Below, one piece after another: positions 14,081-53,461 of a stretch of DNA of 64,000 nucleotides. The notes under the pieces are model-generated. The model was not told where the DNA came from. It was given only the letters and a program-made list of their open reading frames with translations, and ran no database searches. Both the position numbers and the translations under genes were made by a program. This stretch comes from Psammoneis japonica. Its lineage: Eukaryota. Position 1 is the first letter of the stretch. Every line of letters starts with the position of its first letter. Location: assembly GCA_008632985.1 (NCBI GenBank), contig QPGO01000050.1:310001-374000 (forward strand), written 5' to 3'.

Positions 14081-14190
14081 CAGCTTCCTTGAGAATTACC
14101 GTCGGAATCCATTTTCTAATAGTTCGTGTACAGGGTTTCATCATCAATATGCTTCCATTCCTTTTCTCTTCTTTTTGTTTCCAGCGCACG

Positions 14191-14847
14191 CTACTTGTTC
14201 TTTCCGGAACGATTCCTCTGTCTCGCCTCCAGTCTTGCCGCACTCTTGTTAACACAGAGACTTAGAGCCCGCTGAATATCACCACATGGGACAAAGCTTG
14301 TGTTCTGTTGGTCATAGGACGTCTCAGAAATGGCCAAGACTTGACTTTGATCGTATTGCTGAAAGCATTCCTTGAGTTGGACCAAATCTGCCGCACAACC
14401 TAATGCAATTGCTCGGCATGCCCATGTAGCGTGAGTTTCCTTTGCACAGCTCGTGCATGGTTCATCCAAAACAACGTGTGGTTGATATTTTGGTGAATCT
14501 ACTCGCTTGACTTCGTCCTTTGCTGTTTCTACTACTCCGCGTAATTGTTTTGAGGGACTCCTTACAAGCTTGTCGTCACTTTCCTCTGGCACCGCCGTCG
14601 CAAGTTCCTGCCGCCACCCAAAGTATTTCATCATGCGAATCGCACAAACATTTTCATCCATGGAGCTTACATGAGGCTTCTTCTTAATACGTGCCTCTTG
14701 ACACTTTTGTAGAATTGAATCAAGCTCTCTGCATTGCTTTAATCTTTCGATTCGCTGTGCATCGTTGAAGTCCGTCCACCACGAATTCCACCAGCTGCTT
14801 TTCGTACTGACTTGCTCCTCGGAATCGACGTTGGTGTTCTTCGCCAT
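14191..14847 (-). CDS. Hypothetical 218-aa protein with Cys pairs (CHCH/Cx9C-like spacing), inside the dynein interruption
   Basis: Uninterrupted ATG-stop ORF with normal composition: CRELDSILQKC, CAKETHATWACRAIALGCAADLVQLKEC, CGDIQRALSLC. Confidence 0.7.
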   Translation of the reverse strand: MAKNTNVDSEEQVSTKSSWWNSWWTDFNDAQRIERLKQCRELDSILQKCQEARIKKKPHVSSMDENVCAIRMMKYFGWRQELATAVPEESDDKLVRSPSKQLRGVVETAKDEVKRVDSPKYQPHVVLDEPCTSCAKETHATWACRAIALGCAADLVQLKECFQQYDQSQVLAISETSYDQQNTSFVPCGDIQRALSLCVNKSAARLEARQRNRSGKNK

Positions 14848-15108
14848 GATGATTCAAGAAGCACCAGAGACAATGAAGAGTTTAGAAATATGGATGCTAT
14901 TCGACTAGAGAGAGTCTAGCGCACAGCGTTGTAAACGGCACGGATCGATATTATTTTTTCTAGCTGAGGTGTCATGGTGCCGACTTACTATCGACCGACC
15001 GAAATTTGGCGGCCGTCCGCCGTCCGGCTTTCTCAAACCAGCACTGACCACACGCACCGCACTATGCACCGCAGACCAAGCGCAGACCGCGAAGAAATCT
15101 TCACACGG

Positions 15109-15825
15109 TAGAGTAGAACGCAATTTAAGGCCCGGCTAAGAACTCCATCTATGAAGACGACATAATGCGCGTGCATTTCGCACTTTTATGTGTTTATAAT
15201 ATGAAAGATCTCGTTGAACTTGTCAGAAAAAAAATTATTCCACTTTCTCAAATCCGTGTAGTTGATGAGTTTTGTCGCGGGAACCAAAATGTCCGAAGAG
15301 CGAGGATGATAGGATGGTCGTGATTTAAGGCCCTCCACGTCACATACGTAGAATTAGTACTACGTCCTACGTAGGATCCCACATCGCATCGATACGACAT
15401 AAACGATGCACCATGGCGCCGCCGAAGAAGCCTCCGAAGACGGAAGAATGTGCTCCATCATGTTTGTTGACTGTGTCATCTTTCTTTGTGAAGGTCAGTA
15501 CAATAAGGAGAAACTAGTTGTAATTTTCAAAAGCAAGAAGAGTTCAATGAGAGGCACCAGAGAAACAGAGGAGAGCCATGAGGAGCAAGTCAATGGATCC
15601 ATTGACTGCAGCGACGAAGTGGTGTAGTATTGTTCGTTTGGACCTCCATTTGTGGTGGCATGGTCATTTTTTTGCAGCTGCACTGCAGGTGGAAACGGCC
15701 GCTGACCATTCGTCGAGCACTGTTCTCGTGATGTTTTTGTGGAGCTCGTACCTCGAATCCATGATTTGAGCCTGATAGCACAAGGGCCTTAATTCACGCC
15801 GGGCCTTAAATTGCGTTCTACTCTA
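15109..15825. mobile_element. Non-autonomous Tc1/mariner(pogo)-type element or MITE, ~713 bp, 26-bp perfect TIRs, TA target duplication
   Basis: ta-gagtagaacgcaatttaaggcccggc at 15109-15136 and its exact reverse complement gccgggccttaaattgcgttctactc-ta at 15798-15825. Confidence 0.9.
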
Positions 15826-15829
15826 AAAA

Positions 15830-18800
15830 GAGCCGCGCTGTCAGCTGTCAGCCGGGAGGAGCTCAAGGATTTCCTTGGCGCAAGGCTTCGAGTGTTTTTA
15901 TGAAAAGGAGCATGACATTCCTCTTGTCCTTCGTCCTATTCGATGAAATTTTTTATCACGTACTCGAATTGGCATTGTTTGCTAGTCGGAGATGCCGGTG
16001 CAGGGGAAGACGGTTCTTTCCAAATTTGTCGCGTGAATGAATAATGGTCTCACTTATGATATGCCACCAGATAAAGGCGCATACTCTCGCTATGGCATCG
16101 AAGATTTCTACGAAGATTTACGTGGCATCATGCGTCGAGTTGGTATTGACGGCGACAAAAAAATGAGCTTCATCTTTGACGAAAGTAACGTTCCCTTGCT
16201 CCGGTTTCATTGAAGCGATGAATGCTCTGCTACTAAGCGAGCGGGGAAGTACCGGGAGTTTTTTAAAGGTGATGACTGCAATTCGCTAATGCGAATGAAT
16301 GCCTCTCGCGAGAGCGCAGCGCATGAGATGGAGTTATTGTCGACTGTGATGAAGAGCTCTGGAAGCGCTTCACCAGCATTGTGCAGCGAAACTTGCATGT
16401 TGTCTTCACGATGAGGTAGATTGACTTGGAACTTGGGGGGGACTACAGTAGCACTAGAGGGCAGGTTGGTAAAGAATTCACAAAGTCTCTCGACGTTGGG
16501 GATGCCGAAGCAGTCGGAGGACTCTGGGGTTTTGGAGATGGGAGCTTCTCATGCAGCGAGTTAGTGACCCCTTTGAAGGCATTACACCGGGTGGACTGCG
16601 ACAGGCACCTCTCACAGCACTTGTGGAACTCCACCAGATTTACAAGAGCGTTGCAGAATAGAGTACGTTGTCGAGGAGTATGCAGAGCCTTCATTTGTCC
16701 TCGAGACTACCTTGCTCTTATCCAGATTTTTGTACCATTTTAACGCGGGCTTGTCTACTTTAATTGCATCAGACACAAGAGAACGGCACTGTGCTGAAAC
16801 GGGACTAGAAGCAAAGATAAGAAGGCCGAGCTCCGCGAGAAGGAGACTCTGGCGAATGAGAAATTTCAGCAAATGGTGGCAGACCAGAATGTAGCCGAAC
16901 AGAGGAAAGAAGAAGCCGACAGAATTAATTTAGAAGTGGAAAACCAGCAAGTTGCCATAAATGCTCGCAAAGAAGAAGCGAACCGGCTCCGAAATCTGTA
17001 TAGGGCCCTAGGAGATTGTAACAGGGTTTAAGAAGCGAGACTTGGATGAAGTTCATAATTTGGCAAGGCCGCCGAACATCGTGAAACTGACACACGAATG
17101 CATTGCCATCATGCTTGGCGAAAAGAAAATCGAATGAGCGGACGTGAGCAAGCTCCTAAGCAAGAGTTATTTCATTTCAATCATTCTAAACTTTGATGCA
17201 GACAAACTACCACCAAAGCAAATCAAACCGGTGCAAGGCAGGCATAGAGTACTTCTTGGACGGCAACAGTGATCTGGCATAAAACGTTGCAAGGAGCGTC
17301 AAAGCTTGCGGTCCTCTGTACAGGTGGGCCGAGTCACAGATAAAGTCCTCGAGTGTGTACAATCGCGTACAGCCATAACCGGTAAGCGAAGAAGTCGAAA
17401 GGCTGGAGACCGAAGCCAAGGTTGTCAAGGATGAAAAGAAGAAGATCGGAGATGAAGTCAAAGAGCTCGAGTCTTCAATCGCGCAGTATAAGGCTGACTA
17501 CGCAAGCTTGATAAACGACTTTGAATCGCTGAAGAGCGAAATGGATGTTATATCTACGAAGGTAGACCGAGCACTTTTATTAAGAGTACGATGGTCGAAA
17601 AACTCCGAAGGTTTCCAGTGCATTTTCAGAATCTGGTCGGAGACGGCTAGATCCTTTGACTTTTCGAAGACAATATCTTGATGGACCGATGACAGAATAC
17701 TTCAGCCACGCTTGGTATTGAATAATATTAGGACCCTGGCCTTGTTGAGTCGCTTGGTGAGGCGTCGGAGAGGCTCTAGTGGAAAGAAGAAGGTCTTCCC
17801 GGTGATCAGCCGATCTTCGAAAGCGGCGTGATTCTGGATCACTGTGTGCGTTTCCCTTTCGTCATTGAACCATCAGGCCAAGCTATTGACTTTCTCATGC
17901 ACAGACACAAGACCAGAAGCTATTTTTCTCGAGAAAGCTTTCATGAAGATATGAGAGGAGATGTTAGATTCGGAGCCACCTTGTTGGTAGAAAATGTGGA
18001 AACGGTCGACCCCGTGCTCAATCCCGTTCTTAACAAAGAGATCCAGAGGGCTGGAGGAAACACCCTGTGAGAATTGGAACTGAAGACGTCGACTACAGCC
18101 CAAAACTCTCTACCGGCATCATTCTTGGTACCAAGAAACCTTCCGTTGAACTGACTCCCAATCTTTGCTCCAGGGTGACGCTTGTGAATTCTACTGTAAC
18201 CCCCGCCAGTCTCCAAAGTCACAGTATTGAGTAGGGTTGTAAAAGCCGAACGGATTGAGTCGAGACGAAGAGGAAGGATATTCTCAACGCGAGCAGAATG
18301 TGAAGTTGAGGGAGCTTGAAGACCAGATGTTAGCGAAGATTAGTGCTTGCGAAGGCAGTATCCTGGACGACGACCGTGTTGTCGAGGGAATGGATATTTT
18401 TGATGAAGGAACGGTCACAAGTCGAAGAGCAAATATCGCACAGTGCGGAGTATGGCTCAAGTGCACAGCTCGATCAGCAAGTTCGAGCCTTTCGGTCTTA
18501 CTTGTCGGAAGTTGTTCGTCCTACTCGAGGCAATGAGAGAGGTCATTGCCATGTATGAACCAGCGCTACATCGTTTATGTACATGCTTCACCACGTTCTC
18601 GAGAAGAACCAAGGTACAGAAGGGGGCACGAGCAGAGCAGAGAATTACTTCCCTTACTACCTCTCTGTACAGGGAGGTCGCAGCGAGAGTCGGGCGTAGC
18701 CTGATGATTGTAGATATCTTTGGTGCCTATCTCCCATGGCACGGACGGGGGCTGAATCCTGTTAAGGCGGTTATGGAAGACGAGATTGTTTCTACCGAAC

Positions 18801-28445: not shown

Positions 28446-29035
28446 TGTTAACAGGAGAAAGAATGGATGCGTATGGCGACTAATGAGCGAAGTTCTTTAC
28501 GTAACACACCGAATGCGTTGCGGCAGAGGAGAAAGCTTGGATGAAAGAGCGAATCATCATCATCGCATCGCATCGATTGATTTTCGCGGCGCGGGCGGGA
28601 TCGATCTGGGTACGGTAGGATGCAGGGCAGACAGACGGAAAAATTGAAATCCGGCGGCGCGGCCGACTGACCGGCATTTTCTCGAAAAAGATGGACTCGT
28701 TGACGCTGTTGACCGTCGTGAGAAGCACTCTGAACTCTGACTCTCGTGTCTCAGGGACACACCAGTCAACATTGAATGGCAGGAAGAAAGTGTTTTGCAA
28801 GAGTCTCGAGTCAACTTGCCCGTCATCGCTGAGCATCACACACACTCCACTTGATTGACACTGAAACTGCATGCACGGTCAGTGCAAGAAGAACAGCACA
28901 CAGTGTTCCTGAGCATGTGCCAACCAGCTGGTGAGCCCATCATGTTACATTGCAGTGCTGCAGTCAGCAGCTGTGAGGAGAATGTCATGAGATGATGACT
29001 CTCTCCAACAAGGAAGAAAGGCGCACAAAGAGAGA

Positions 29036-29425
29036 GACGCGTTCCAGGTCTAGGTGGGACCTCGCACTACTGAACTGTGACATCGATGGTTTTTTGAGTC
29101 TCGTCGTATGTCGCGCACGTAGATTTCTACGTGATTTTTTTGATATTTTGTGTCATTTTACGGTACACTTATTGAGTGATCCGTGTAACAACTTTTGACA
29201 TTTTTTGTTACAGCGCGATTCTACAATGTCTTAAGAATCGCGTAGGGCAGGCGAAGTTGCAAAAACGTCGAGTGGTAAGAGGCATAATTGTACCACAAAC
29301 TTGGCCGTTTATTTGATGTTGAAGATAAATATATCCATTAATTAAATTCTCGTACTACGGAGCTCGCACGTAGAATTCTACGGGCCCAATGTCACACGGA
29401 GTCCCACCTAGGGCTGGAACGCGTC
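29036..29425. repeat. Inverted repeat pair (25 bp, 2 mismatches) with further patchy inward symmetry; MITE-like or two facing TE ends
   Basis: gacgcgttccaggtctaggtgggac (29036-29060) vs reverse complement of 29401-29425, gacgcgttccagccctaggtgggac. Confidence 0.7.
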
Positions 29426-31297
29426 GAGAGGGGCACACCCGCTGTTCTGTGTTTCCCAGCTGATGTGGGCAGGTTCTTGAGGTTGTCCCATGCCAACAGA
29501 CCTGGGCAATCTCTTTCAGACAAAAAAGTTGATGAGAGTGCTGGGTGGCCACATGGGCCATCCAGGATTTTGAGTGCGTGCTGTTTTGCTCTCATGAGGA
29601 CGAGACGACACAGGTGCAAGTCCGCGCACTTTCCCAAGTCCTCCCAAGGCGCAGCAGTGATGAACCCTGCAACCCTGCAAAACACCTCAACTTCAACCTT
29701 CAAAAAGCTCCATGGGCAGTGCATGGCATGGAACAAAACAGCTGAGCTGTGCACAAAAGTGCAGAGCAAGCAGCGTGTGTGGACATTTGCCCTGCCCAGC
29801 ACTGCCTCACCTCGTGAGAGAAGAAGGCCCAAAACTGGTGACAAACAATGCCAGGAGAGCAACCAAGCAAAACAAAACCAGTGTTGCTTCTTTGCCAAGC
29901 TTGCTGATGTGTGCAAGAACAAGTGCACCCATTTGCCAGTGTGTCACCTGCTGACTGAGACTCTGTGCTGGGCAACAAGAAGCTGCCCCCAAGAACTTGG
30001 CCAAGAAATTCTTCCAATGGCCATCATCTGGACAGCTGCCACATTTGGGAAGAAGAACCACAAGTCAAGCTCAGTGCAAACTTTGGCAGCTTTTCTCCCT
30101 CCCACAGTGTGTGCCCCCACACACCGGGTGCATCAAAGGCAGCAAGTTGATGCCACCAATGACTTTGGCAACCCAGCGGTCACAGCTGTCTGCAGCGCTG
30201 ACTGTGACACAGAGGACACAGATCTCTTGCTCTTGTTTTCCATGTGGGTGGTGATGTCTGTGCATGTGCAAGCTTGTTGAGCCACTGTGGAACACTTGAG
30301 TCAACAAGTCTGGGGCATCATTTTGGCCAAGAAACAAAGAGCCAGAAAAAGTCTCCAGCACAGAGCACTTTGCCTTTTGTTTGAGCCATTGACCGCAGCT
30401 TCAAAGCAGGAGGCAAGGGTTGAGCACTTTCCCACTTTCTTTGGTTGGTGTGCTCCTGCTTGATTCATTTGTGTTTTGTGGAGTGAGGGCAGCATCATCA
30501 AAAGTGAGCATCTTGCCTTGCCGCCACCTGACACGCAATGTTGGTGGTGGTTGCATGGTCCTCAAAGCACACAAGCTTGTTGCAAAAGACACCATCAAAA
30601 TGAAAGCTGTCCCCTTGTCATCTCCTCACTCTCAAAGCTGCCCCTCTTGCTGCTCTTGTCTGTGGGCATGCCACATTTCTGTGCAAGCACCCACTGGCAG
30701 CCCCTCCTGCACGCGTGTTTCTGTGTGTGCTTTTGCACTGAATTTCAGACGGCATTTTGCTGGGGGCCCCCGACACCCTTTTGGCCCTTTCTGCCATTGG
30801 TGCACCCCCTCATTTCACCATGATGTGCCACAATTTTCAGTCAAAAACAACTGGCATCGACGCCTTGTGGTGTTGCATGCTTGTTGTCTTGTTTGGCAAT
30901 TTTTTGCAGATTCAGTGCAGTTTTTACACAGAATCCAGTGCAAATTCTGCAAGCTTCTTCAGAAATGTCCAATGACAATCATGACATCTTACAATTTCTT
31001 TTGCTCCTTCTGGACACTGTCAAGTTCTTCACCTCATGTGGTGACAGCACTGTCCCTTTGGCAGCGGGCAGACATGCTGTTCGCGAATCATGCACGCATC
31101 ATCTTCTTCGCGTGTCATTCTGGATTCTGGAATTTGACATTGTGGCATGCACAATGATGCGGCTTCCGGAGCCGCTCGTCGCTCGTCCTTTTATCAACGC
31201 ACATGGGTTGCATCTCTAGAGAGAATCAAAGGCAGCACAATGCCCTCTCTTCACATTTTGTCTTCATGAAGCACAAACTGCGACAAGTGAGCACTTG

Positions 31298-32994
31298 ACT
31301 CAGAACACTGTACACTGCCCAACGAGTGCGGGAGGTTCTCAACAACCCAAGAGGCAAAGAAATTGCCACTCGGCCAATTGTTGAGTCCCTTCTCCGCACA
31401 CACATTTGGGCATGTGTTGTGCACAGCATCATCACACAGCATTCATCCAACTCTCCCTCTCGTCGCAGGATGGGGTGTCGCCTTGGGGCGCATCCGCACG
31501 GCGGACTTACGAATTTGACCATGCACTCCCTCTGATGGGCAGGATGGGTGGCGCCATGTGGCGCATCCGGCCAAGGGAGGAGTGGGTTCGAAGCCCAACC
31601 GCCCACCCCGGATGGGGTTGGAAAGGGGCAGGCCGAGAAAGAAAAGGAGGCTTGGATTTGAGGCCGACTCGAGCCAGCGACCTCAGGAAGCGTAAAGACT
31701 CACAACCACTCAGAATGCTGTACACTGCCCAACGAGTGCGGGAGGTTCTCAACAACCCAAGAGGCAAAGAAATTGCCACTCGGCCAATTGTTGAGTCCCT
31801 TCTCCGCACACACATTTAGGCATGTGTTGTGCACAGCATCATCACACAGCATTTGTCCAACTCTCCCTCTCGTCGCAGGATGGGGTGTCGCCTTGGGGCG
31901 CATCCGCACGGCGGACTTGCGAATTTGACCATGCACTCCCTCTGATGGGCAGGATGGGCAGCGCCATGTGGCGCATCCGGCCAAGGGAGGAGTGGGTTCG
32001 AAGCCCAACCGCCCACCCCGGATGGGGTTGGAAAGGGGCAGGCCGAGAAAGAAAAGGAGGCTTGGATTTGAGGCCGACTCGAGCCAGCGACCTCAGGAAG
32101 TGTAAAGACTCACAACCACTCAGAACACTGCACACTGCCCAACGAGTGCGGGAGGTTCTCAACAACCCAAGAGGCAAAGAAATTGCCACTCGGCTGATTG
32201 TTGAGTCCCTTCTCCGCACACACATTTGGGCATGTGTTGTGCACAGCATCATCACACAGCATTTGTCCAACTCTCCCTCTCGTCGCAGGATGGGGCATTG
32301 CCTTGGGGCGCATCCACACGGCGGACTTACGAATTTGACCATGCACTCCCTCTGATGGGCAGGATGGGTAGCGCCATGTGGCGCATCCGGCCAAGGGAGG
32401 AGTGGGTTCGAAGCCCAACCGCCCACCCCGGATGGGGTTGGAAAGGGGCAGGCCGAGAAAGAAAAGGAGGCTTGGATTTGAGGCCGACGACTCGAACCAG
32501 CGACCTCAGGAAGCGTAAAGACTCATAACCACTCAGAATGCTGCACACTGCCCAACGAGTGCGGGAGGTTCTCAACAACCCAAGAGGCAAAGAAATTGCC
32601 ACTCGGCCAATTGTTGAGTCCCTTCTCCGCACACACATTTAGGCATGTGTTGTGCACAGCATCATCACACAGCATTTATCCAACTCTCCCTCTCGTCGCA
32701 GGATGGGTTGTCGCCATGTGGCGCATCCGCACGGCGGACTTACGAAATTTTGACCATGCACTCCCTCTGATGGGCAGGCGGATGGGTCAGCGCCATGTGG
32801 CGCATCCGGCCAATGCCAAGGGAGGAGTGGGTTCGAAGCACTCAGAATGCTGCACACTGCCTGACGAGCACGGGAGGTTCTCAACAACCCAAGAGGCAAA
32901 GAAATTACCACTCGGCTAATTGTTGAGTCCCTTCTCCGCACACACATTCAGGCATGTGTTGTGCACAGCATCATCACACAGCATTTGTCCAACT
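31298..32994. repeat. Tandem array of a 410-bp unit (starts 31298, 31708, 32118, 32531, partial 32840)
   Basis: Near-identical units beginning actcagaa(ca/tg)ctg(ta/ca)cactgccc; the 4th unit is internally deleted (309 bp). Confidence 0.97.
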
Positions 32995-34696
32995 GCTTGC
33001 GATCGCGGGAGTTTGATGCTGTTTTCTTCTTGCAGTTCTTTGCGCTGTACGCTCTGCTGTGCTGGCATTTTCAGTCGCCCATTGAAATGCAAGGGGAACA
33101 AACAAAGGTTTCCACCAAACCCACTGCGAATGGAACAGCTTCCGCCTCATCCAGCACTTTGTTTCAATGTCGTCAAGCAAAATGATTCTTGGCCAGTGCA
33201 TCAACAGGACTTGGTCGCATGGGAGAGGTCCCTTGAAGCCTTTGATGGGACAAAATGGTGTCTTCTGCCACGACCTTGTCCCTTGGAAACAAGTGGACGA
33301 TTGAATCTTCCTCTGCAAAACACGTCACATTTGCCTTTCAGACACCAAAAAAATGTTGCGGCGGCCAATGTCTCCAACAACGTGAATTGTCTCGCACCTG
33401 CAACTCGTGGTGAATGTCCACGGCGGAACAATTTTGTCATGACCGACATGACAACAAGTCGACATGATGCGCATTACACACCGAGGCGGTGCCGAGCCAG
33501 CCACACACTGCAACACTCACTTGATTTGCCGACCCAAACCAACCTTTCAATGTCGGGTTTGACGCGATTGTGTGCACAGCAACACGAAGCATCGTCGGTC
33601 TGGCATCGAACAAGTCAAGAGGCACCGCCACAATGTGTGGCAGAGAGTTTGCCACAATGGCTCCGAAGCTCTGTCAGAACGTCCCAGCCACCGCCATTGC
33701 CAAACAAAGACAGCGAACCGGCATTGTCACCCGGAATGTCGGCGCCACCACCACGCCACCAGACACTTGTTGCGACCGCCAGCCAACAATGATTGTTGCC
33801 ATCCAATGGAAAACATTTCAACCATGTGATACAAGTCAGACAATGCCATCATTCCAACGTGAAAGAGATGCGAAAATTCAAGCCTTCGGACAGCTAAACT
33901 TGGTACAGCGTTGAAAGAAGTCTCTGAGAGAGAAAGAGTAATCTTGTGACGCGTCCGCGGTCTTCTCGCGCACTCGCAGCAACAGGGAGTCTGAGAATGA
34001 AGTGCACTAAATCAACTACAATCGAATGTAGACATAGCCGATTTTGCTAGAACAAGAACGCTGACGATTGGGATTCAGACATGGAGAGCTCGTTAGAAAG
34101 TGAGAAGGAATAAATGTACTCTGACTAAGACAATAGTTTTTCCGTACCAAAGAAGCTCGACGCAAGAAAGAGAGCTCCTGTGATCAAGGCATCCGTTCCG
34201 GCCAAAACAAGCTGACCTTGCGATGTCGAAGCAACCTACCAATGCCGATCCAGGACCTGCGCAGTCTGCAAATGATGGGATCTCCTGCGTCAACTAATTT
34301 GAGCAAGAAGAGTCCTTCAAAAGTGACTATCGAAGGTAGCGACTTCTCGCTCTGACGGAGACTTCCCCAAATTTTGCAGCGAAAAATGTGCGCCGTCATC
34401 GGTTCCCCCCGCGAGAAAGAAAGCCGCAGCAAAGATGGCGCCAGGAACCTTTGATGGAAGGCGGTTGTGTATCGCTCGAGTGACGATAGCAACGATTCTG
34501 GCCCTTCGGCAAGTCACTCGGATTCGTTGCCTGTCTCCTAATTAAATACCAGCATCTCGTGTTAGGGCCGGGCGCGGTCGACGGTGATTTATGCCTACAG
34601 TGTGGACATTGATAGCGTTGCCTCTGATTTTGAACGCATGGGATGACAACAATTAGTTCAGGAACACAAAGACCGACGACACGCACGAGAGATACT

Positions 34697-35495
34697 CAGC
34701 ATTTATATTCAGCATGTCGCTTGTAGCTACTTTGCCGCTCAAATCATTGTTGACTGGTTAGGGAGGGCAGTGTAGCCTTGGATGATTGAGCGTGGAACGC
34801 ATTCATTTGACGTTGACTTGAAGACATTACTTCTGTAGACAAGCGCGTTGGCCCATTTGCGCGACGCATTCATGAGATCGCCCTCAGAAACTTGATTCTT
34901 TTCTTTATTTTACGGAAAGCTGTAGTATCTCTCCAACAGATTGTACGAGATTTTGGTAATTTACCCTTTAAACAGGAGGCCCGGTTCTATTTTCGCCTGT
35001 TTTATCATGTACAGTACAGTAACCGCGACTGCTTCAGATTTTGCCACTACCTCGCAGATAACCTATCATTGCGATGTCTTCCGCCTATGTCTTTCACTAC
35101 GTTAGAGGCATGAGGGAACACGCTCCAGCGACATTCAGCATTTACGTTCAGCATGTCGCTGGCTACTATGCCACCCAAGTCATTGTTGACTGGTCAGGAA
35201 GGGCAATGTAGGCTTGAATAATTGGGCGTGAATAATCGCATCCAATAGACGTTGTTGACAACCGCGTTGACCCATTTGCGCGGCGTATTCATGGGATCGC
35301 CCACAGAAACTTGATTCTTTTGTTAATTTTACGGAAAGATCTAGTAGCTCTCCAACAGAGTGCAAGACATTTTGGTAGTTTACCCTTTCAACAGGAGGGC
35401 CGGTTCTATCATCCATTCGCATGTATTATCATGTACTGTACAGTAACCGCGACTGCTTCAGATTGAGCCACTACCTCGTAGATAACCTATTATTG
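34697..35495. repeat. Old diverged ~440-bp tandem duplication
   Basis: cagcattta..ttcagcatgtcgct..tcattgttgactggt..gatcgccc.cagaaacttgattcttt..tacagtaaccgcgactgcttcagatt..ccactacctcg.agataaccta at ~34697-35068 and ~35136-35490. Confidence 0.85.
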
Positions 35496-35575
35496 CAATC
35501 TCGGTCCTTCAGATAAGATTGAAAGAGGATACCCTCGAGTAGCTACCCGCGAAGGTCTCCCAATAACAAAGACGA

Positions 35576-39493: not shown

Positions 39494-41344
39494 GGATTAG
39501 TACCGTATCAAATTCCAATCTCTTCACGTTAATGTCTCTCTGATTGAGGCAGCAGCATAGACTCATGATGAAGAGTGGAGCAGCAGCAGCAGGCCATGGC
39601 AGTCGCATTCAAAGTCAGATGCGTGTGAAAAATTTCAAAAATCCGGAGCTCGGCGGCAGTTTTTTTTTACGGCTACCGTAAAGCGTACGTAGGAATTAGT
39701 AACAATTTTGACAGTACCGAGTTCCCACGAATGTTCTACATACGGAATCATGGCAACAATTCAACACAAATACACAAAAGTGATAGTGTTGAGAAATTTA
39801 GCAACGGTCACGACCCACCAAAATCTCTCGGAAAGCGCTCGATTTTCGCTCACAACTCGTCGTCTCGCACGATGTGTTTGTTGTTCGCCAAGCAACGAAT
39901 GCCACGATCGCCGAGGATGGCTCACCCTTCCCCTGGAATAGAAAGCTTGCTCTTGTTTGGCGTTCCACAGCTCGTTTTGCTTGCTGACGTGTTGTCGCTA
40001 GGTGGCGTAGGTGTTGCCAGTTACGTCCGGAGGTCGGGGCAAATCGAATGCGTGTCTCGAGCCTTGAGTCCATGTTACTCCTTTCCATCAGCTGTCCCGA
40101 ATTACCAACCAGTAAAGCCCCGTCGACTGACCATTCCACTCGGCCAGCTGATGTGATGACCAACCCTTCGACGGAGCCCTCGGCATTTCCCTCTGCAGCA
40201 CCACGTGCAGCTTACGTGCTATCAAAAGCACCATCAGCAGAACCAAGCAATATTATTTGGAAGCACTTCGTGCTGTGACGATGAACGTGAACGATGCATT
40301 GTAAGATGTACAAGGAAAGAAAAGAGGATCAAACCAAAGATGCACTTCGATGGGATGCACCATTGCTAGGAGCCACTGGACCGAACCATTTCTTTCCTTA
40401 TCATTTTGCGACATCTGTTCTCGTAAGTTGTTTTCCGGCTGCACTTTTCCCACTCCATCCCCGTCACCTGAAGATATATACAAGCTTGAGCTCCATCTTC
40501 TGATGGCACTTTTGAGGCAATTTGATCCTACGCAACCGTTTTAATAGCCACTTTTGACATTGGCGTGTTTCAATTTTTTGAAACATGCTTTGAACCTTTA
40601 CGAAAGAGGTAGACATACTAAAAGTACAGCATAGCAATCTTTATTGGCGTGTTATTCATTCCGTACGTACGTCAATGGACTACGATGACGGCCGTAGCGC
40701 TTGTGATGTCATTGCATACTTTGATGTAATGGTTTCTGTTTTCGTACCACACTGCTCTTTCTCTTTCTGGTGGGGTCCATGCTGGGGTATTCGTTACAGT
40801 ATTCCCCAAGGCTTGTCATCGATGTGTGCTAGACTATTTTGGCTCTGATCGCCTGCATATTTTATGGATTCGTCGCGGTTACTTGTTGTTAGGGAGTTTC
40901 AAGTGTTCTGCCGAAATAGCGGAGCACTAGAGAGTAGAAGAACGCCGACGACAAGGCCTCTGGGGGTTTATCCGAGCCATCTCAATTCTAAATTAGCTAG
41001 CTACAATGCCTCTAGAGAGAAAAGAAAGATTCGAATTTTGTGAGTTTTTTATTTCTCTGACGGTACCAAGCTCCGTTTATCCTTTTTCTGAGGTGAATAA
41101 TCACCTGGGTCTCTCCAAACGGAGTTCTCGAGCTTGTCTTTGAAGTTGGCATTGAGCGTGTCAATCGATGCACACGTCAAGGTCGAGTAGAGGCTGTGAG
41201 GCGAATCGAATTGACGGCTATGTTGAATATATTTGGCTTGTTGCGTCGCAATCTTTCCTCCCGCTTTTCTTAATTCCTCAGCAAAAGCTCTTCTGAACCA
41301 CTCTTTCGGCTACTCATAGAGTTGCTACGAGAGCGGCAGCCGGC

Positions 41345-43719: not shown

Positions 43720-46700
43720 CGCTGCCTGTGCACGCTAATCACGCGCAAGGCGCCAGCCTTCAGCTCTCCACCCGGAAAACCCCCCATCTTCCGAGCAAAC
43801 CCTCAGCACCACACCCTGCTTTCAACGCACGAGGAGTTTGGTTCTGCCACTTGTTTTCTCCAAAAACTTATGACAAGCAAAGTCATTTGTCACAGATTTG
43901 GCACAAATTCTTCATGTCAGCACAAAGTGCACAGACCGTGGTCAGCCAAGAACTCGTCGCTCAGATCACACCCCGGGAAAAGAAAGTGGCCGGAGCAAAT
44001 TCCTTGCATGTCAAAAGGGGTCAAGCAATGGGGGTTTGTTCAGATGACAGGGTTTGAGTGGGAGATGTGATCATTGAGACATGTCCCTCTGCCAAATTGT
44101 TTGGTGGCTGTGCCCCAGAAAGTTGGCCATGGCACTGCTGCTGCTCGCAATGCAGGGCTTTGATGCCCATTCTCAACATGAAGAGCCCATCACATTTGGC
44201 TTGATCTGGCACTCACACATGGACAAACTGGTGCCATCTTCCTGCTGAGGATGTTTCCTGGCACTTGTCTAAGAGGATGGGATGAGCGAGCCTTGCAGGC
44301 AAAGATGGGTTGCCCTCGCTGTCCTGATGCTGCTCACTCACTGCACTGACAAAGCTGCACACTTCAAAGCGCAGCTTTTGCCATTTGTCTGCCAGCCATG
44401 CTCTGCCATCATCACATGCAGGGCTGCCACAAATGGTGTGAGGCAATGATGTTGCTCAAGGCACGTGGATTGAAGTGTTTGTGTTTTTTCTTTTTTTCAC
44501 AGTCTGGCAGAAGAACCTGTTTTGTTGGTGCTTTGGACAAGCATGACTTGGCATGTTGGCATCAGCCACTCTTTCCCACCAGCCACAAACTGAGATGCCT
44601 CCATGGTCACCTTCTTCTCTTGACTTCTGTGAGCACTTGCAGCTGCACTCAGCAAAACATGCCATTGGGTTGGCTTTTGCTGGCAAATCTTTTTGTTGTG
44701 TTGCAAAATGACTGGCCTGCCATTCTGTTTGTGCCAAATAGAATGTTCTTGGGGAGATGAGCTTGTGCCAATGTCCACATCACACAATGCTTGGAAAACC
44801 CCTGCTCTGACACAACCACTGATTTTGTGTCTTCAGTTGTGAGCCTCTCCAAGATGCCCATGGATTTTTTGTCCACATCTGTCTTGAGTTTAATCTGGAC
44901 CAGCTGCAGCTGGGAATGTGGTCTGTGGTGATTTGTCTTTTGTCCAGGAGCCAAGATTGTCTGAAGTGTTAGCCCACCCCTCAGATTCTGTGCAAGTTGT
45001 CAACAAGCACACCCAACAAGCACACCCAACAAGCAGATGAGCAACCCCTGCTTTTTGCTGACTCTGCTGAAATCTGAGATTGGCCACTTTTGACCTCAAA
45101 TCCCTGGGAAATGATTGGTGCATGGCACCAGAGATGTGCACATCACATCATCAGATAACACAGCACTCTTGCCAACATGCCAAAGTTGCCAGAAATGGCT
45201 CACCTGGGCACTGTGGGTCTCTCAGATGAGAAGTTGCAGGAGATCCTTGGAGTGTTGTGTCAGCAAGTGGGGTCTGATGCCTGGCAAGAAATCTTGGTGC
45301 ATTTTTTGACCAGAGGCAGATTCTTTTTCATGAGCCCCATCTTGGTCATCTGGTGTGCAGCCATTTTTCACAGTGATTGAGCAGCGCTGTTTCAACCTCC
45401 TCTTTGTCTGGGTTTTGTTTGTCAGTGCCTGTCAGAACATTTTTGGGGCCAGAGGCAGTTTGTCAGGATAGACAAACAATGCTGCAGTGCAAGACACACT
45501 GATGATTGTGGACAATGTGGTGAATTTGCACTCACAACTTGGGTTGTGTTGTGGCTCTGGTTTGGTTCTCACTTTTTGGCTTCTGCACCTGGTTTGCATG
45601 GCAATGGTGGTCAATGGCAATGGGAACATGTTTGCAAACCACAAGGGGAGCTCAGGGTTGGTGAGACCATGTGAACATGCCAGTGGATGAGCCACAAAAC
45701 TCCAACAGCTGCAGAAGCCAAAAGGTCACTGCACAAGACACTGGATGACCTGTCATCAAACCAAGTTCTCACCTCAACAAGTCACAGATTTCAGTCCCAA
45801 GAAGTGCAAACATGAAGTCAAGACTCAATGGTTGGCATGGGAGAAATTTTCATTCCCATGAATGAAGATTCCCCAGCAACCTGACAGTGCCACAGCAGTT
45901 GACACAGGGCAGGCTTGGGAAATTTAAAGACTGAAGCCCAACTCCAAGGCTGCAATGCACAACACAGATGGTCACAGCATTGTCAACAATGTTCAACATC
46001 AACAGTTGACTTTGGTGCACAAAATTGAATTCACCAAGTGCAACATTTGCAGCCAAATGATGACAAAGCCTGGTTCCATCTCTGTCCACTGGGGGTCTGA
46101 CAATTTCATGCACAAATGCATGAAAGACTCTGACTCACAGGACCAAGTGTGACAGTTGGCAAGCCAAAATGCTCCAATGTTGGTCTGGAAAATGTGGGCA
46201 AGGACACAGCTGAGCACAGGAGCACACAGGATTTAAAAAAGTGGGTGCACAACACCGTTGCCAAGTTGGGGTGAAAGGCAGATGTTTGCATGGAAGCCAC
46301 AAAGAAGATTGGCCGCGAGCATGTTGGGACAATGTTTGGGCAGGAGATGCAGGTGCTGGTGTGTCTCTGAGGCAGGAGAGCATGCCAAGAAAAGAGCTGG
46401 AGCATCCATCAGGAGACACTGCACATCAGGAAGGACAAAGAAATCTGGGACAAGCAATGCAGTCAATCATGATGTGAAACAGAGTGAAATCTGCAAGATG
46501 CAGAAGGCAAGGCACTGAGCACAATTGTGGAACACAATGTGCAAAGGCCACTCATCACAAGATGATCATCAAAGGAGTGATGGAGTTCATGAGAGTCATG
46601 AAGGAGTGGAGCATGGTGGTGTTGTTGGAAATTCTCAAGTTGATCTTGTTTGATGAAAATGAGAAGATGTGCTTGCCAGAGGTGCACAAAGCATCTGTTG

Positions 46701-49700
46701 TCATCTGCACATGCACATTTGCACACTCATCATGCACACAAATGAAAAATGATGAGATGGTTGTTTGTCACCAGCCAGCAAGTTGATTGTGTGCATCAGG
46801 CAACAACATGCAATTCATGCACCACCTCTGGAACTCACATGTTCAGGTGGTCAGAGCTTGGAAACAGCTGGCACTCATTTGTCAAGACAAAGGAGAGGTG
46901 CACTTCAAGATTCTTGTTGTCACAACTGGCTGATGACACCTTCTGGAACAAGGAAAAAGACAAATTGTCAGCAGCAATGCTGATGGAAGGCAAAAAGGAA
47001 TGTCGGCAATGGGAGATGACAATTGCCCCAATTTGGCTGAGGAGGCACTGCAGGGATTGGACACGTGTGAAGCCAACAAGAAGCCCAAGGGCACAAGCTT
47101 TGTGCCAAATGAGAAAAAGCAGCTCAAGCACTGGGAATGCAATGAGGTTGGGCATGTGAAAATGGATTGCCCTGACATGATCATTTGTCAGCGGTGCAGA
47201 GTTGGATGATGTGGGCCAGCCCACAGCAATCAGCAGAGCAGTCAAAGTGGTGTTGGATGACATGGCTCCCAAGTGTCATCCTCCCATGCTTGATGCACAT
47301 GAGGCCAATCAATTGACAGCTCATGTGAAGGAGTGTGTTGAAACATTGGGGTTGGAGGCAGTTTTTGCAGGACAGACAGACAATTTTGCAGTGTAAGATG
47401 CACCAACAATTTTGGACAATGTGGTGAATTTGCACTCACAACTTGGGTTGGGTTGTGGGTCTGGTGTTCACTTTTTAGCTTCTGCACCCAGTTGACACCG
47501 GCAACAGTGGTTGGCAGCAATGGGAGCATGTTTGCAAACCACACGGTGAGTTTGTGGGGTGGTGAGACCAAAGCAACACATGCCAGTCGGCAAGCCACGA
47601 ACTCCAACAGTGCCATCTTCTTGCTGTTTCTCCAACAGCTCAGTTGCAATGAGGTGTGTTGAGGAGTCTCCAACATCTGGTTGATCATTTGCCATCTTCT
47701 GCAGTTTTTGTGACCAAGTCATTTTGCTGCACATTTGGCAAGGTCCTCCAGCCAAGCTGAGCAAGAGCAGCAGCCAGCGTTGCTCTGGTCTCTCAGAGGT
47801 GTCTTCAATGCTGAGTGCAGATGGCCCCAGCTTCCAGCTTGCTCCTGCATGGTTCTTGGCATGCTGCAGCCATGAGTTGTCTAGAGTGCAGCATGCCAAC
47901 TTTTTGTTGGAACCTTGTTCAAGCCCATCATTCCCAACACCCATGAGATTGTTGCCTTTGGTCTTTGCTCAGTGTCTGGCTCATGCTGTTGCCGTGCAAG
48001 GAGTGCTTGTTGTGAGTGTTGCATGCTGCAGAAATGCTGAGGTTGGAAAGTTCCTTTCAGCTGCTGAAACAAAGAGCTTGGGGGCGGTGCTGTTTGTGTT
48101 CAGCCATTCTCCAAAACTGACCAGTTTGGTCTGTGCAAAGTGCCCAATGTGTTTGTTCTGGTCTGCTCTGAAAACACTTTTGTTCTTGTGATCCTCATCT
48201 TTTCTGGAAATCTGTTGACCTTCTGGAGCACAGCTTGGAGAATTGAGCAAGGTTTGTCAATGGCTTGGGGGGGGGGGGGTGTAAACAGCTTGGGGGGGCA
48301 CAGTCTTTGTGAAATTTGGCATTGCTGCTGTGGACCAGCAAGATGACCCCTGTTCTTTGTCTTCCTCAGTGGTTGCCTCTCTGCTCTGAGAGACCATGCA
48401 GTTGCCTGCTGCAGCTCCTCTCTGCATGGGCCACTTGCCCTCACCCCTGCCAAGTCCTGCAGCTGAACAGCTTGAGCAGACTCAACGCTGTTTTGTGGAT
48501 GGGGGTTGCAACTCTCCACTCTCCTCCCTGCACAACATGGCAACAGTGCTGGAAACAATCTGCCTTTCGCTGAGGTCTCATTGCCATCATTTGTTCTGTG
48601 CCCTGGATGGGCACATTGTTTGTCAAATGTCATGGCATCATTGTTGGCTGTTTTGTTGTTGGGGGGAAGTTGGCTTGACATTCTCATGATCTTGCATCTC
48701 CTTGTTGCTGAGACAAAGGGCTGAAACTTGCTGTCTTTGGAAGGTTCTTCAGAGCCACTGGAGCTCCAAGAGGTGGGCAAGTTGGAAGAGGCACACTGGA
48801 AGAGCTGCAAGAGAAGCTTGGAGCAGATTGTGTGGAGCAAGACTTTTTGCCACATGCTGCTTTCTCCTGCATTGCCTGCCCTGGCCACAGCCTTGACATT
48901 CTTTTCTTCTTCTTGGGACTGTTTTCTTTCATTTTTTTGTTTTCCAGAAAATCATGGTGTCAGCCAGAGTGTTCACAACAATGAGTTGTTCTGTGAGCCA
49001 ATCATTGGATGACTTGTTGTGTTGTCCTGAGACACATCATGGTCACCCTGCCACCCCCATTGTCAAGAACCTCAAACACAATGTTTTTGGTTGCCACTCG
49101 CCTTGTTTGGCCAGAAGAGAAATTGCTGAGTGAGCTGACATTCATTGTCATCAGGCTGGGCATGGGTGGCCACCATCTTCTTTGCCTTGGCAGCATTCTT
49201 GGGATGAGTTTTGAGCTTGTCAACAATGCCCACTGCGTCGCTGCTGCTGTTTTGATGTTTTTCATTCATGTCTCAGCAGTCTGCACTGTTTTTTTGTTTT
49301 CAAGACCTTTTGAACTCCTTGCCATTGTGCTGCTTTGGATCAGATGTTTTTTGTTTGTTTTTTCTGAAGAGAGCATCAATCTTGCCTTGGGTGTCTGTCT
49401 TCTTGTGAGTGCCCTCCTGTGTGTTTGGCATTGCAGAGGGAGGCTCTGGGTGCTTTTCATGTCTGTCATGCGGCAAAAATTGGTGCTGGTGCTGTGTGAC
49501 AGTGTGGGGCTGCCAGCACCTCTTTCACACACTGATGCATCACATGCATGATGCTGGAAAAGTTTTTTGCTGATCCTCCACCCCACAGCATTTCTTTTTC
49601 ATCAGTTTTGTGTTGGACATGTCACCATTTGGTGTCACACCGTGCTCTCTTGTCCTCTGTTTGAGCTTTTCTGCTGTGCAGCACCACTTGTGACTGGAAG

Positions 49701-49900
49701 AGGTCTTCAAGTGCACTCTTGCTCGTCATTCTTGCCAGGAGCAAAGCCCTTGTTGGCTGCTTTCTTGTTCGACAGCCATTTTCAATTTGATCTTTCCTCA
49801 CATGTCTGGTTTCCTTGTCTTTCCTCATCTGGCTGAGAGGAACCCTGTGATCGAAAACCCTCCCCGACACTGCACGCACAGCAGACACGTGTCACACAAT
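43720..49900. mobile_element. TpA- and CpG-depleted hypermutated block 3 (unidentified host element carrying a nested LTR element)
   Basis: About 2 TA and about 5 CG counted in 47700-48700; Tyr-free ORFs. Confidence 0.75.
45430..47609 (+). mobile_element. Gag-only copia (CoDi-like) LTR retroelement: LTRs 45430-45707 and 47336-47609, TSD GTGCC
   Basis: TGT...AACA LTR pair. GTGCC at 45425-45429 and 47610-47614. Purine tract gaaggagtg before the 3' LTR. Gag remnant MGDDNCP..GTSFV with degenerate zinc knuckle WECNEVGHVKMDCP (~47130-47175). Confidence 0.9.
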
Positions 49901-50430
49901 GGATCATTGAGTCATGACCGGGTGAGTCATGATGATCGTCAGTCCCGAATCATCAGAATTCGCGCAAGCTGGCGTATGTACGTCCGGTCTTCTGGCGGCG
50001 TCAATAATTACTTCTTTGTCAGAACAACGTCACACCATAAATAAAAAATTCAAAATGATGCATTCTCGTCGAATCAGAATGGCCGACAGCCATCAATCTG
50101 GTTCAGTATACTGAAGCTCCTGTAGAAATCTACGTAGCAATGCTCCAACGCGACTGCGCTCGCTCCAACGACGTCGCTCCTTCCGCCACCGATCATCTGC
50201 GTGCATGCATTTTCGACGTTGGCGACATCGACACATATGATACACCGCATGCACACATCACAAACGAAGTGAATTCTGATTGTCTGACTCTGATTTCAAA
50301 CGGAAGATACACTTCTTGACTCAACCTTTCGAGTCAACAAGCTGTTTTGAAGTCAGGAAAGCAACTACGTTTGCTCACAATTCCCACACCTTCCGTTTCA
50401 ACAACAACGATTCAAGCATACCGTTTCACC

Positions 50431-53460: not shown

Positions 53461-53461
53461 C

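Follow-up and report, generated by a model that had tools for sequence, protein, structure and literature searches.

The question raised by this locus is why homologous sites in the units of a tandem array should read TA in some copies and TG or CA in others. The array (31298–32994, no strand assigned) belongs to a family that is present at high copy in the genome, and it lies in a stretch of 64,000 nucleotides (the window) from a diatom-like host, as seen from the LPA1 ORF, which is 55–71% identical to named diatom proteins. The array was located with TRF, which called a 410-bp unit at 31298–32813 with 3.7 copies and 95% matches, and the five units were then aligned to each other, their starts falling at 31298, 31708, 32118, 32531 (a unit of 309 bp) and 32840 (a partial unit of 155 bp). 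No credible tRNA was detected in the unit by ARAGORN, despite the presence of B-box-like motifs, Rfam gave nothing credible at the gathering threshold or at E ≤ 5, and a degenerate 35-base pattern derived from the unit had 0 matches when metagenomes were scanned for it.

Thirty-seven columns of the unit alignment are variable, 13 of which were dropped: seven (within 158–170) belong to the non-homologous end of unit 5, three (178, 186 and 189) to a conversion tract in unit 4, and three (253, 254 and 257) to alignment shifts next to the unit-4 indel. The 24 clean columns that are left are all transitions, and 23 of them are found in YpR dinucleotide columns, which account for 196 of the 425 positions (binomial P = 2.5e-7), while the non-YpR columns show a background of 1 clean substitution per 894 cells. 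Among the 93 YpR columns, CA is conserved in 36, TG in 21, CG in 20 and TA in 1, and 15 are variable, 12 of these with only TA, TG or CA and no CG in any copy. All the examples for which the initial annotation had given coordinates were confirmed, namely TG/CA/TA at 31549/31959/32369, CA/TG/TG/TA at 31444/31854/32264/32677, TG/TA/TG/TA/CA at 31407/31817/32227/32640/32949 and CA/TG/TA at 31375/32195/32917. Its remark that CG occurs in none is true for the sites which it listed; elsewhere, three of the 15 variable YpR columns are CG/TG or CG/CA. It had also described the CpGs of the array as abundant and mostly shared, in agreement with the alignment, in which 20 of the 23 CG columns are invariant.

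The relative rates of these changes were estimated with a star-tree likelihood on the array, in which gene conversion within the family (perhaps tens to hundreds of copies) is ignored. When the TA-loss rate was freed, lnL rose from –236.1 to –202.9 (delta-AIC 64.5), with a fitted TA loss of 0.66 per direction versus 0.0075 for other YpR changes; TA loss exceeds the other YpR changes by a factor of about 90 and the non-YpR background by one of about 1000, the latter value being based on one background event. Under the same model, no gain in lnL was obtained by freeing either the CpG-decay rate or a RIP-like TA-gain rate. The array taken by itself is nevertheless weaker evidence than the initial annotation held, since a model built on hot CpG sites fits nearly as well. 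The decay of 5-methyl-CpG, as in vertebrates, plants and diatom transposons, gives the same products, TpG and CpA, but it acts on CpG, not on TpA. Were it the only process, the hot sites would be ancestral CpGs, and TA would have arisen by later C→T change or by short-patch repair during gene conversion. A mixture with a hyper-labile subset of ancestral CpGs and a moderate TA flux reaches lnL –201.6 with 8 parameters (AIC 419.1), compared with AIC 415.7 (TA-decay) and 413.6 for the TA models, than which it is worse by 3.4–5.6 AIC units; the three array sites with CG/TG or CG/CA, and the methylation of repeats documented in diatoms (in the accessible part of PMC9998398), are also in its favor. 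The lack of any gain in likelihood when CpG decay alone is freed speaks against it, as does the stability of the CG columns in the array, where 12 of the 13 TA-involving columns are variable and only 1 is invariant.

The surroundings of the array carry more weight. The array is part of a larger TpA-depleted island, one among five, which together make up 19.2 kb, or about 30% of the 64-kb window, and none of which has a strand assigned. Island 1, whose left edge is beyond the window, spans 1–5350 (TA 18 vs 324 expected; CG 189 vs 343); island 2, which contains the array, spans 29410–33829 (TA 21 vs 242; CG 172 vs 311) and includes a 1515-bp TA-free stretch (29410–30924) as well as single-copy TA-free flanks; island 3, the most extreme, spans 43870–49974 (TA 12 vs 403; CG 43 vs 357), with a 1692-bp stretch devoid of TA; island 4 spans 53741–55115 (TA 1 vs 95; CG 13 vs 77) and island 5 spans 56750–58713 (TA 4 vs 143; CG 41 vs 104). 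In the pooled islands, 56 TAs are observed versus 1208 expected (O/E 0.05) and 458 CGs versus 1193 (O/E 0.38), with CA and TG at O/E 1.73 and 1.72, compared with 0.57 (TA), 1.00 (CG), 1.13 (CA) and 1.17 (TG) outside; the remaining 12 dinucleotides are alike inside and outside. The surplus of CA and TG, about 1380, is matched by the missing TA (about 630) and the missing CG (about 735) taken together, relative to the composition of the host itself: the composition of the islands is the normal one with TA and CG turned into CA/TG. In the array TA O/E is 0.19, and across kilobases of the islands it falls to 0.01–0.06. Composition is bimodal along the window, island or rest, and the borders are sharp, within tens of bases, TA-free runs of up to 1692 bp giving way to normal TA density over only a few bases; outside the islands the gap between TAs has a mean of 25.8 bp and a maximum of 330 bp. 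As a control, TA O/E is 0.60–0.74 in eight stretches (12.3 kb) that contain no ORF and lie outside the islands, and in 77 diatom-like metagenome loci (284 kb) no TA-free stretch exceeded 15.4 expected TAs.

Such a composition might also come about with no mutator at all, if the islands had been imported from a viral or otherwise foreign source or were kept as they are by selection against TpA and CpG, with the array reflecting drift. Sharp island borders do resemble insertion borders, the islands are without detectable homologues or domains, and certain viruses reportedly suppress both CpG and UpA. Of the 198 island ORFs that reach 58 aa or more (78 + 120), none gave a Pfam match at E ≤ 0.001 and none showed a viral or transposon domain; among the 78, three Pfam matches had E values of 0.002–0.009, all below their cut-offs, and one long island ORF had 2 weak matches only among 1.84 billion protein representatives. 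In TA-free DNA, TGA is the sole stop codon and long false ORFs are therefore expected in annotation. The islands, however, have no coding capacity left on which selection could act, their TA depletion is far below the suppression in the control DNA examined, and the balance between the CA+TG surplus and the TA+CG deficit is struck against the composition of the host. Moreover, a search of the edges of the four fully contained islands for terminal direct or inverted repeats gave none above shuffled controls, in either the plain or the R/Y alphabet. Together with the duplicates described below, these observations make an origin without a mutator highly improbable.

The duplicated sequences of the window give the polarity of the change. 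A dispersed repeat has one copy in island 1 (4349–4913, + strand) and the other outside the islands (40001–40668, – strand; TA O/E 0.64). The outside copy bears 14 aligned TAs; at 13 of these sites the island copy has TG (7) or CA (6), at 1 the TA is kept, and there are 0 sites with the reverse arrangement. Differences at CG in the same pair run both ways (3 vs 2), so that the 13:0 asymmetry concerns TA and not CG, and it is the host paralogue outside the islands which bears the TAs, a point against import or selection. The pair could in principle mean TA gain outside; the composition of the domains alone speaks against it. Within island 3, two copies on the + strand (45443–45709 and 47346–47611) differ by 10 CA↔TG double swaps per 260 aligned bases and share 0 CG and 0 TA; had each copy undergone its own, independent conversion of some 25 ancestral sites, TA and CG together, about 12.5 swaps would be expected, a number close to that observed and again hard to reconcile with the absence of a mutator. 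A tandem duplicate outside the islands (34678–35499, + strand; copies 34678–35075 and 35117–35499) served as a control; its copies have 16 TAs in common and differ by 23 transitions and 26 transversions, with no YpR effect. Self-comparison of the window in a purine/pyrimidine alphabet gave no pairs beyond the BLASTN set, except one marginal 63-base match. As a predictor of whether TG or CA results, the flanking base was in the predicted direction at 4 of the 9 informative sites, nine sites being the whole sample.

Support for the sequence itself was sought in Logan contigs (contigs, not raw reads) of one public run, possibly the sample of the assembly itself. Over the array and its flanks, 101 of 381 contigs are at least 99% alike and parts are reproduced exactly; a 106-base contig with a depth of 947 matches 32565–32670 with 0 differences and spans the TA at 32640, and the right border of island 2 is bridged by one contig of the same run. 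Two further public runs (X2 and X3) gave 3 and 0 contigs. An assembly or sequencing artefact was rejected, as contigs agree with the TA-free flanks of single-copy depth at every base over lengths of 205, 166 and 300 bases. The same data bear on the role of repetition, because contig depth in island 2 separates the array bins (218–17095) from the single-copy flanks (about 60). The single-copy segments 31088–31281 and 33028–33600 (depth about 60) are as TA-free as the island of the array, and 33049–33829 has 0 TA versus about 45 expected. The initial annotation had regarded the process as directed to repeats; repeat targeting is not supported, since the single-copy parts of island 2, the island covered by the depth data, are equally TA-free. 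In this single-copy flank, at 33354–33355 (+ strand), the window has TG where a public-run contig has CA at full depth (60.7).

These data also bear on fungal-type RIP, or any other repeat-directed C→T change that converts CpA into TpA. Such a process would suit an array that is repeated and differs by transitions only, and diatoms carry DNMT4, a relative of the fungal RID protein (PMC9998398, accessible part). As in the RIP of ascomycete fungi, the changes are transition-only, dinucleotide-specific and restricted to domains, they degrade non-genic DNA and they leave a strong compositional footprint. RIP, however, makes TpA from CpA, while TpA is destroyed here, and the dependence on repeats is unsupported at this locus, where single-copy flanks are equally affected. 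In 1-kb bins wholly inside the islands the RIP indices are inverted, TpA/ApT being 0.01–0.21 and (CpA+TpG)/(ApC+GpT) 1.46–2.37, and the low TA O/E of the array and the useless TA-gain rate point the same way, so that a RIP-like origin is hardly conceivable. That the direction is opposite to that of RIP, as first proposed, is borne out by the depletion of TpA and by the TA in the outside copy at 13 sites versus 0 in reverse.

As stated above, CG is also depleted in the islands, and methyl-CpG decay appears from the sequences to co-occur there. Upstream of the array there is a further repeated segment (30700–31087, no strand assigned; summed contig depth 461–2013), whose genomic copies differ from one another mostly through transitions in neighboring Y/R pairs, and at many of its sites the window reads CA and other copies read CG; in the part at 30843–30940, the many sites with CA in the window have CG in 42–79% of the contig depth. 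These sites are ordinary CpG decay, and CpG loss thus contributes to the CA/TG variation in the islands. The island-1 duplicate shows 15 CG/TG or CG/CA differences as well. The extent of this loss is variable, with CpG O/E ranging from 0.02 (in island 3) to 0.88, while TpA loss is uniform. As the only process, methyl-CpG decay draws support from the CpG depletion of the islands and from this neighboring repeat with its many CA/CG/TG sites, for which CG is common among genomic copies. It cannot, on the other hand, remove TpA, of which the islands have lost nearly all, and the segment 33049–33829 is TA-free at CpG O/E 0.75–0.88; with the TA-specific asymmetry of the dispersed pair added, this reading is very unlikely.

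Taken together, these observations suggest that the array is probably the still-diverging part of a discrete domain under TpA-specific A:T→G:C hypermutation, whose signature, direction, domain restriction and sharp borders can be read in the standing sequence. According to this model, TpA would become TpG by A→G change on the strand read, or CpA by A→G change on the other strand. Conversion would be independent in each copy, so that after duplication homologous sites would read TA, TG or CA. The process would be confined to sharply bounded islands and be near completion there, genes and other non-coding DNA being left untouched, and 5-methyl-CpG decay to TpG/CpA would act within the islands as a second process of variable extent. 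The core of the initial proposal, an unstable TA that is turned into TG or CA through A→G change on either strand and independently in each copy, is thereby upheld by the likelihood models, the composition of the islands, the 13:0 polarity and a recent precedent.

This precedent was absent from the initial annotation, which knew of no description of such a process. In a 2026 preprint (Mettrop et al., bioRxiv 10.64898/2026.01.13.699255), the accessible part of which reports that giant-virus and virophage DNA integrated in the genome of the chlorarachniophyte Bigelowiella natans undergoes TpA→TpG/CpA hypermutation, two hypermutable regions gained 231 mutations in mutation-accumulation lines, of which 230 were A→G or T→C; the authors state that those A→G/T→C mutations all hit TpA, with a local excess of about 1000-fold. 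[quoted passage not shown] The footprint reported here is of the same kind. For diatoms, literature searches turned up neither TpA hypermutation nor TpA-free islands, and in the one mutation-accumulation study of a diatom (PMC6604790) the accessible text gives a GC→AT bias and mutagenic contexts CG, CC and TG, the term TpA being absent from it.

The likeness to B. natans, so far as the preprint's accessible part describes it, extends to the target and products, to the discrete regions within an otherwise normal genome, to the long-term footprint, clusters of 1-kb windows poor in TpA and rich in CpA+TpG, and to a rate excess of similar order to that of the array. Clusters as defined in the preprint are found here at 1–4000 (4 windows) and 44001–50000 (6 windows), when the mean of CA and TG O/E is used, from which the combined Rho of the preprint may differ slightly; taken singly, 14 of the 64 1-kb windows qualify, and the array windows (31001–33000) are just short on CpA+TpG (1.51 and 1.45). 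There are differences as well. In B. natans the mutations were measured in lines, while here the footprint is known from standing sequence; the host is a rhizarian there and diatom-like here; the footprint here is much nearer to completion, TA O/E being 0.05 across the islands, compared with a Rho of 0.45 in their NCLDV region; and the affected DNA is far denser, with about 30% of the window versus 124 clusters in the whole genome. The targets are viral there, while here 0 of 198 ORFs have viral or transposon domains and a high-copy tandem repeat is included, and CpG is co-depleted here but is not mentioned in the accessible part of the preprint.

As for the chemistry, the islands show no shortage of AA or TT (1.22 and 1.29, respectively, versus 1.16 and 1.16 outside), and therefore the target is TpA and not WA. 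Mutagenesis of the Pol-eta type at WA motifs gives A→G at both TA and AA, and it was rejected on these values. A tentative candidate is an ADAT2/TadA-type deaminase that would turn adenine in DNA into hypoxanthine; the tRNAs on which such enzymes naturally act always present U33-A34. Adenine deamination is also favored, without proof, by the authors of the B. natans study, and DNA editing by amphioxus ADAT2 is cited by them (10.64898/2026.01.13.699255, in the part accessible). The ADAR and ADAT/TadA editors make a plausible enzyme family, with their A→G change and their preference for a 5' U/T; their substrate, however, is RNA, or else DNA with no domain targeting known, while the change here is heritable, in genomic DNA, on both strands of the same copy and over kilobase domains. 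ADARs prefer a 3' G, which does not match the TAA/TAG enrichment of the TAs that survive in the islands, where survival follows a YTAR pattern. No deaminase gene was found within the 64-kb window. The APOBEC3 enzymes are a further parallel, as a deaminase-based defense that leaves context-specific transition footprints in integrated copies, but they deaminate cytosine (G→A/C→T) on single-stranded replication intermediates, with strand bias and a rise in AT content, in contrast to the A:T→G:C change at TpA on both strands seen here.

TpA hypermutation might instead use another chemistry, in which a TET/JBP-like oxygenase modifies the thymine of TpA to a base of the 5-hydroxymethyl- or 5-formyl-uracil type and this base then pairs wrongly with G, or an error-prone repair polymerase is at work. 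Oxidized thymines mispair with G, and T→C at TpA cannot be told in sequence from A→G on the opposite strand; TG and CA products are both present in the same copies, and CpG and TpA, both lost in the islands, are the two YpR steps with a 5-methylpyrimidine on both strands. TpG, in which T also precedes a purine, accumulates instead of decaying, the WA motif of a Pol-eta-like polymerase is not supported by the undepleted AA and TT, and adenine deamination is the chemistry favored, if unproven, in the sole measured case (10.64898/2026.01.13.699255, accessible part), so that a different chemistry is on balance unlikely.

Returning to TpA-specific hypermutation as such, the islands would be marked as silent or foreign chromatin, and the process may function as a genome defense. 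It is possible, if rather doubtful, that diatoms and chlorarachniophytes share an old, enzyme-driven DNA-editing defense, based on a TpA-specific adenine deaminase or a T-modifying equivalent that is guided to silent or foreign chromatin, and which would here be saturated over a large non-genic fraction, alongside cytosine methylation, as a SAR-wide mirror image of fungal RIP.

A shared defense of this sort, if real, would amount to an A-to-G editor of nuclear DNA that occurs in nature and is specific for sequence context. There is so far one experimental description of targeted A:T→G:C hypermutation at TpA, in a rhizarian alga, and comparing the genomes of two such distant hosts could narrow the search for the enzyme; a DNA adenine deaminase, if that is what it is, would be of interest to base editing. 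The 410-bp array keeps a natural record of accumulated mutations: at 95–97% overall identity, each copy has lost about three quarters of its ancestral TAs. The sharp borders of the islands can be set against maps of methylation, small RNAs and histones. The process, which can reshape a large share of non-genic DNA and is not limited to recognizable viral inserts, may be widespread in one major group of marine primary producers.

In 1-kb bins the composition of the window is bimodal, and five sharply bounded TpA-depleted stretches, here called islands, stand out when borders are placed from TA-free runs: island 1 (1–5350, its left edge outside the window), island 2 (29410–33829), which contains the tandem array of 410-bp units, island 3 (43870–49974), the most extreme, island 4 (53741–55115) and island 5 (56750–58713). 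Over the 19,214 bp of islands, 56 TAs are observed against 1208 expected (observed/expected ratio, O/E, 0.05) and 458 CGs against 1193 (0.38), with CA at 1.73 and TG at 1.72; over the 44,786 bp outside, TA is 1736/3033 (0.57), CG 2568/2574 (1.00), CA 1.13 and TG 1.17, and islands and outside barely differ in the remaining 12 dinucleotides or in base composition. By arithmetic on dinucleotide counts, the island surplus of CA and TG (~1380) equals the summed deficits of TA (~630) and CG (~735), so that island DNA resembles the ordinary DNA of this genome with TA and CG rewritten to CA/TG. The longest TA-free run covers 1692 bp (103 TAs expected), and island 3 ends abruptly at 49974, the following TAs lying at +1, +5, +31 and +35. 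TA gaps outside the islands average 25.8 bp and do not exceed 330 bp. TpA loss is uniform across islands (0.01–0.21 per 1-kb bin) and CpG loss uneven (0.02 to 0.88), and at 33049–33829 TA is absent and CpG kept at 0.75–0.88; to judge from these values, CpG decay co-occurs with TpA loss in the islands and is separable from it. The array makes up a minor portion of this wider phenomenon. Outside the nominal islands, 28616–28946 and 53001–53740 are partially depleted (TA O/E 0.27–0.44, 1-kb bins) and may be small or young islands. TG exceeds CA in the right-hand portion of island 3 (47870–49974; skew +0.16 to +0.33, AT skew –0.27) and CA exceeds TG over the array and its right flank (30910–33829; skew down to –0.27), an asymmetry that may come from strand-biased conversion or from the ancestral sequence.

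Four kinds of evidence indicate that TA is the state being lost, and the direction proposed in the initial annotation, TpA to TpG/CpA and opposite to that of fungal repeat-induced point mutation (RIP, CpA to TpA), was read correctly. The first is a dispersed repeat with one copy in island 1 (4349–4913) and one outside all islands (40001–40668): at the 14 aligned sites with TA in the outside copy, the island copy has TG (7), CA (6) or TA (1); no site shows the opposite arrangement (13:0), and CG differences run both ways (3 vs 2). Secondly, the two copies of a duplicate within island 3 (45443–45709/47346–47611) share neither CG nor TA and have 10 CA/TG double swaps over 260 aligned bases; at outside-island densities ~10 TA and ~15 CG would originally be expected, and independent conversion predicts ~12.5 swaps. 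Thirdly, the RIP indices of the islands (1-kb bins) are the inverse of RIP. The fourth is a likelihood analysis of the array, fitted to its pyrimidine-purine (YpR) columns on a star tree that ignores shared ancestry and gene conversion in a large family: freeing the TA-loss rate alone raised lnL from –236.1 to –202.9, whereas freeing CpG decay or RIP-like TA gain left it at –236.1 and CpG gain gave –227.7. Fitted rates are 0.66 per direction for TA loss vs 0.0075 for other changes, and TA would have occupied ~12% of array YpR sites (~12 per unit), near the outside-island density. For the array only, a mixture of a small class of instantly decaying ancestral CpGs with moderate exchange of TA with TG/CA fits almost as well (lnL –201.6, 8 parameters, AIC 419.1) as the TA models (AIC 415.7 and 413.6); the array alone is not decisive on TA decay.

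The array itself was detected by TRF at 31298–32813 (410 bp, 3.7 copies, 95% matches), and five units can be aligned on the unit start, at 31298, 31708, 32118, 32531 (309 bp) and 32840 (155 bp, to 32994). Among 37 variable columns, 13 were set aside (7 where the end of unit 5 is not homologous, 3 alignment shifts next to an indel, and 3 in which the first box of the internal duplication of unit 4 has taken on the sequence of the second). The 24 clean columns are all transitions, and 23 fall in YpR columns (196 of 425 positions; P = 2.5e-7), with 1 clean substitution in 894 non-YpR cells. The 93 YpR columns comprise 78 invariant ones (36 CA, 21 TG, 20 CG and only 1 TA) and 15 variable ones, 12 of which switch among TA, TG and CA without CG, the other 3 being CG/TG or CG/CA. 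The YpR variation is thereby confirmed as real and far from chance; the coordinate examples first listed were all correct, and the claim that CG occurs in none holds for the sites listed with it. Each unit (31460–31580 and the same part of the others) has an internal duplication containing the palindrome GCGCCATGTGGCGC, and in unit 4 (32700–32730) three changes make the first box identical to the second, which suggests a short gene-conversion tract. A B-box-like motif, GGTTCGAAGCC, at 31585–31600 and homologous positions, with a similar motif on the opposite strand, hints that the repeat may derive from a tRNA; neither ARAGORN nor Rfam found anything in it, and a metagenome scan for further copies of the unit was empty.

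Support for island 2 was sought in the public run X1, as Logan contigs rather than raw reads, which hold 71% of the sampled words of 30700–33600. The contigs show 0 differences from the single-copy flanks over 30700–30904, 30884–31049 and 31028–31327, and a contig of 106 bases (depth 947) is identical to 32565–32670, including TA at 32640. An assembly artefact is ruled out by these matches. Parts of the array and its flanks are reproduced, in contigs of one run that is possibly the assembled sample itself, so that the support is not independent biological replication. Summed depth is ~60 in the flanks, 218–17095 in array bins and 461–2013 over 30700–31087, which makes the array and this upstream segment multi-copy families; 34 of 39 variant places listed from the contigs are transitions. 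Several upstream-family sites are CA in the window and CG in 42–79% of contig depth, which reads as ordinary CpG decay. In single-copy TA-free DNA, at 33354–33355, the window has TG and the contig CA at full depth, the kind of difference expected if an ancestral TA were converted differently in two lineages or haplotypes.

By contig depth, the single-copy parts of island 2 are TA-free to the same degree as its repeats, so dependence on repetition, central to the hypermutation first proposed as repeat-targeted, is not shown, and the array is not alone in carrying the signal. Outside the islands, a two-copy duplicate (34678–35499) retains 16 shared TAs and differs by 26 transversions vs 23 transitions. 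Eight ORF-free stretches outside (12.3 kb) have TA O/E of 0.60–0.74 and CG of ~1, so islands are not explained by a lack of coding. No TA-free stretch with more than 15.4 expected TAs was present in 77 diatom-like metagenome loci around LPA1 homologues (284 kb).

These patterns, as far as sequence can tell, show a TpA-specific, transition-only process limited to sharply bounded domains, with both strands hit, since TG and CA products occur within single copies. AA and TT are unaffected by dinucleotide O/E, which argues against a WA-motif polymerase. An enzyme of the ADAT2/TadA type, for which the tRNA substrates invariably offer U33-A34, would deaminate the adenine; some mark would set the islands apart, possibly for defence. 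A modified thymine mispairing with G is the alternative, and it is not separable from adenine deamination by sequence alone. Surviving island TAs outside the array are YTAR in 24 of 41 cases vs 320 of 1740 outside islands, and the base 3' of A, counting both strands, is a purine in 62/82 vs 1542/3480 (Fisher P = 1.5e-8), and survival across the three context classes is roughly multiplicative. Such a pattern is consistent with A being lost faster in 5'-TAY-3' and could equally reflect the sites where new TAs arise; in the island 1 repeat pair, the TG or CA outcome agreed with that predicted from the flanking base at 4 of 9 informative sites.

The initial annotation knew of no description of such a process, but one exists in another lineage, the alga Bigelowiella natans. 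In the available part of the preprint by Mettrop et al. (bioRxiv 10.64898/2026.01.13.699255), two regions of mutation-accumulation lines, an integrated giant virus and a virophage, mutate at ~1000x the rate of the remaining genome, 230 of 231 mutations in these hypermutable regions are A to G or T to C, all on TpA according to the authors and yielding TpG or CpA, 124 clusters of TpA-depleted, CpA+TpG-enriched 1-kb windows are reported, and the authors put forward an ADAT2-like protein as a candidate DNA adenine deaminase; none of the words diatom, CpG, tandem and trinucleotide appears there. Its cluster criterion, as given in that part, picks out 1–4000 and 44001–50000 here, and 14 of 64 windows singly. 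The present islands differ in their more extreme footprint, host lineage, unannotatable and repetitive targets and co-depletion of CpG, and from fungal RIP they differ in direction. Literature searches yielded no diatom report of TpA hypermutation; the only diatom mutation-accumulation study describes a GC to AT bias and, in its accessible text, never mentions TpA (PMC6604790), and diatoms possess DNMT4, which is related to RID, the protein of fungal RIP, and is itself described as being of unknown function (PMC9998398). The signal is real and unusual, and can be placed with the very recently described B. natans type.

Genes outside the islands encode, among others, LRR, UbiA prenyltransferase, LPA1/Rep27, HPP, thioredoxin and RRM proteins. 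The LPA1 ORF is 55–71% identical to proteins named from Fistulifera, Amphora, Phaeodactylum, Seminavis and Chaetoceros, and the best match of the UbiA ORF is a Grammatophora transcript (47%), which makes the window diatom-like, not Bigelowiella. Islands 4 and 5 are separated by 1.6 kb of normally composed DNA that carries LPA1/Rep27 (55346–56383, minus strand); the ORF ends come within 230 and 367 bp of the island borders, so genic DNA is protected very locally. No origin can be recognised for the island sequences: 198 ORFs (≥58 aa) gave no Pfam match at E ≤ 0.001, and a search of the edges of islands 2–5, which lie wholly inside the window, turned up no terminal repeats. An ORF in island 1 (1347–1661, plus strand) has a sub-threshold match to APOBEC2 (E 0.0087; 16.5 bits vs a cut-off of 26.8), most likely noise from a spurious ORF. 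Because TA-free DNA holds no TAA or TAG, long gene-like ORFs of 283–363 codons lacking Pfam matches run through the islands at 1–1089 (minus), 29411–30277 (plus), 32920–33789 (plus; 2 weak matches only among 1.84 billion representative proteins) and 48103–48951 (minus), and TA-free islands are a trap for gene callers.
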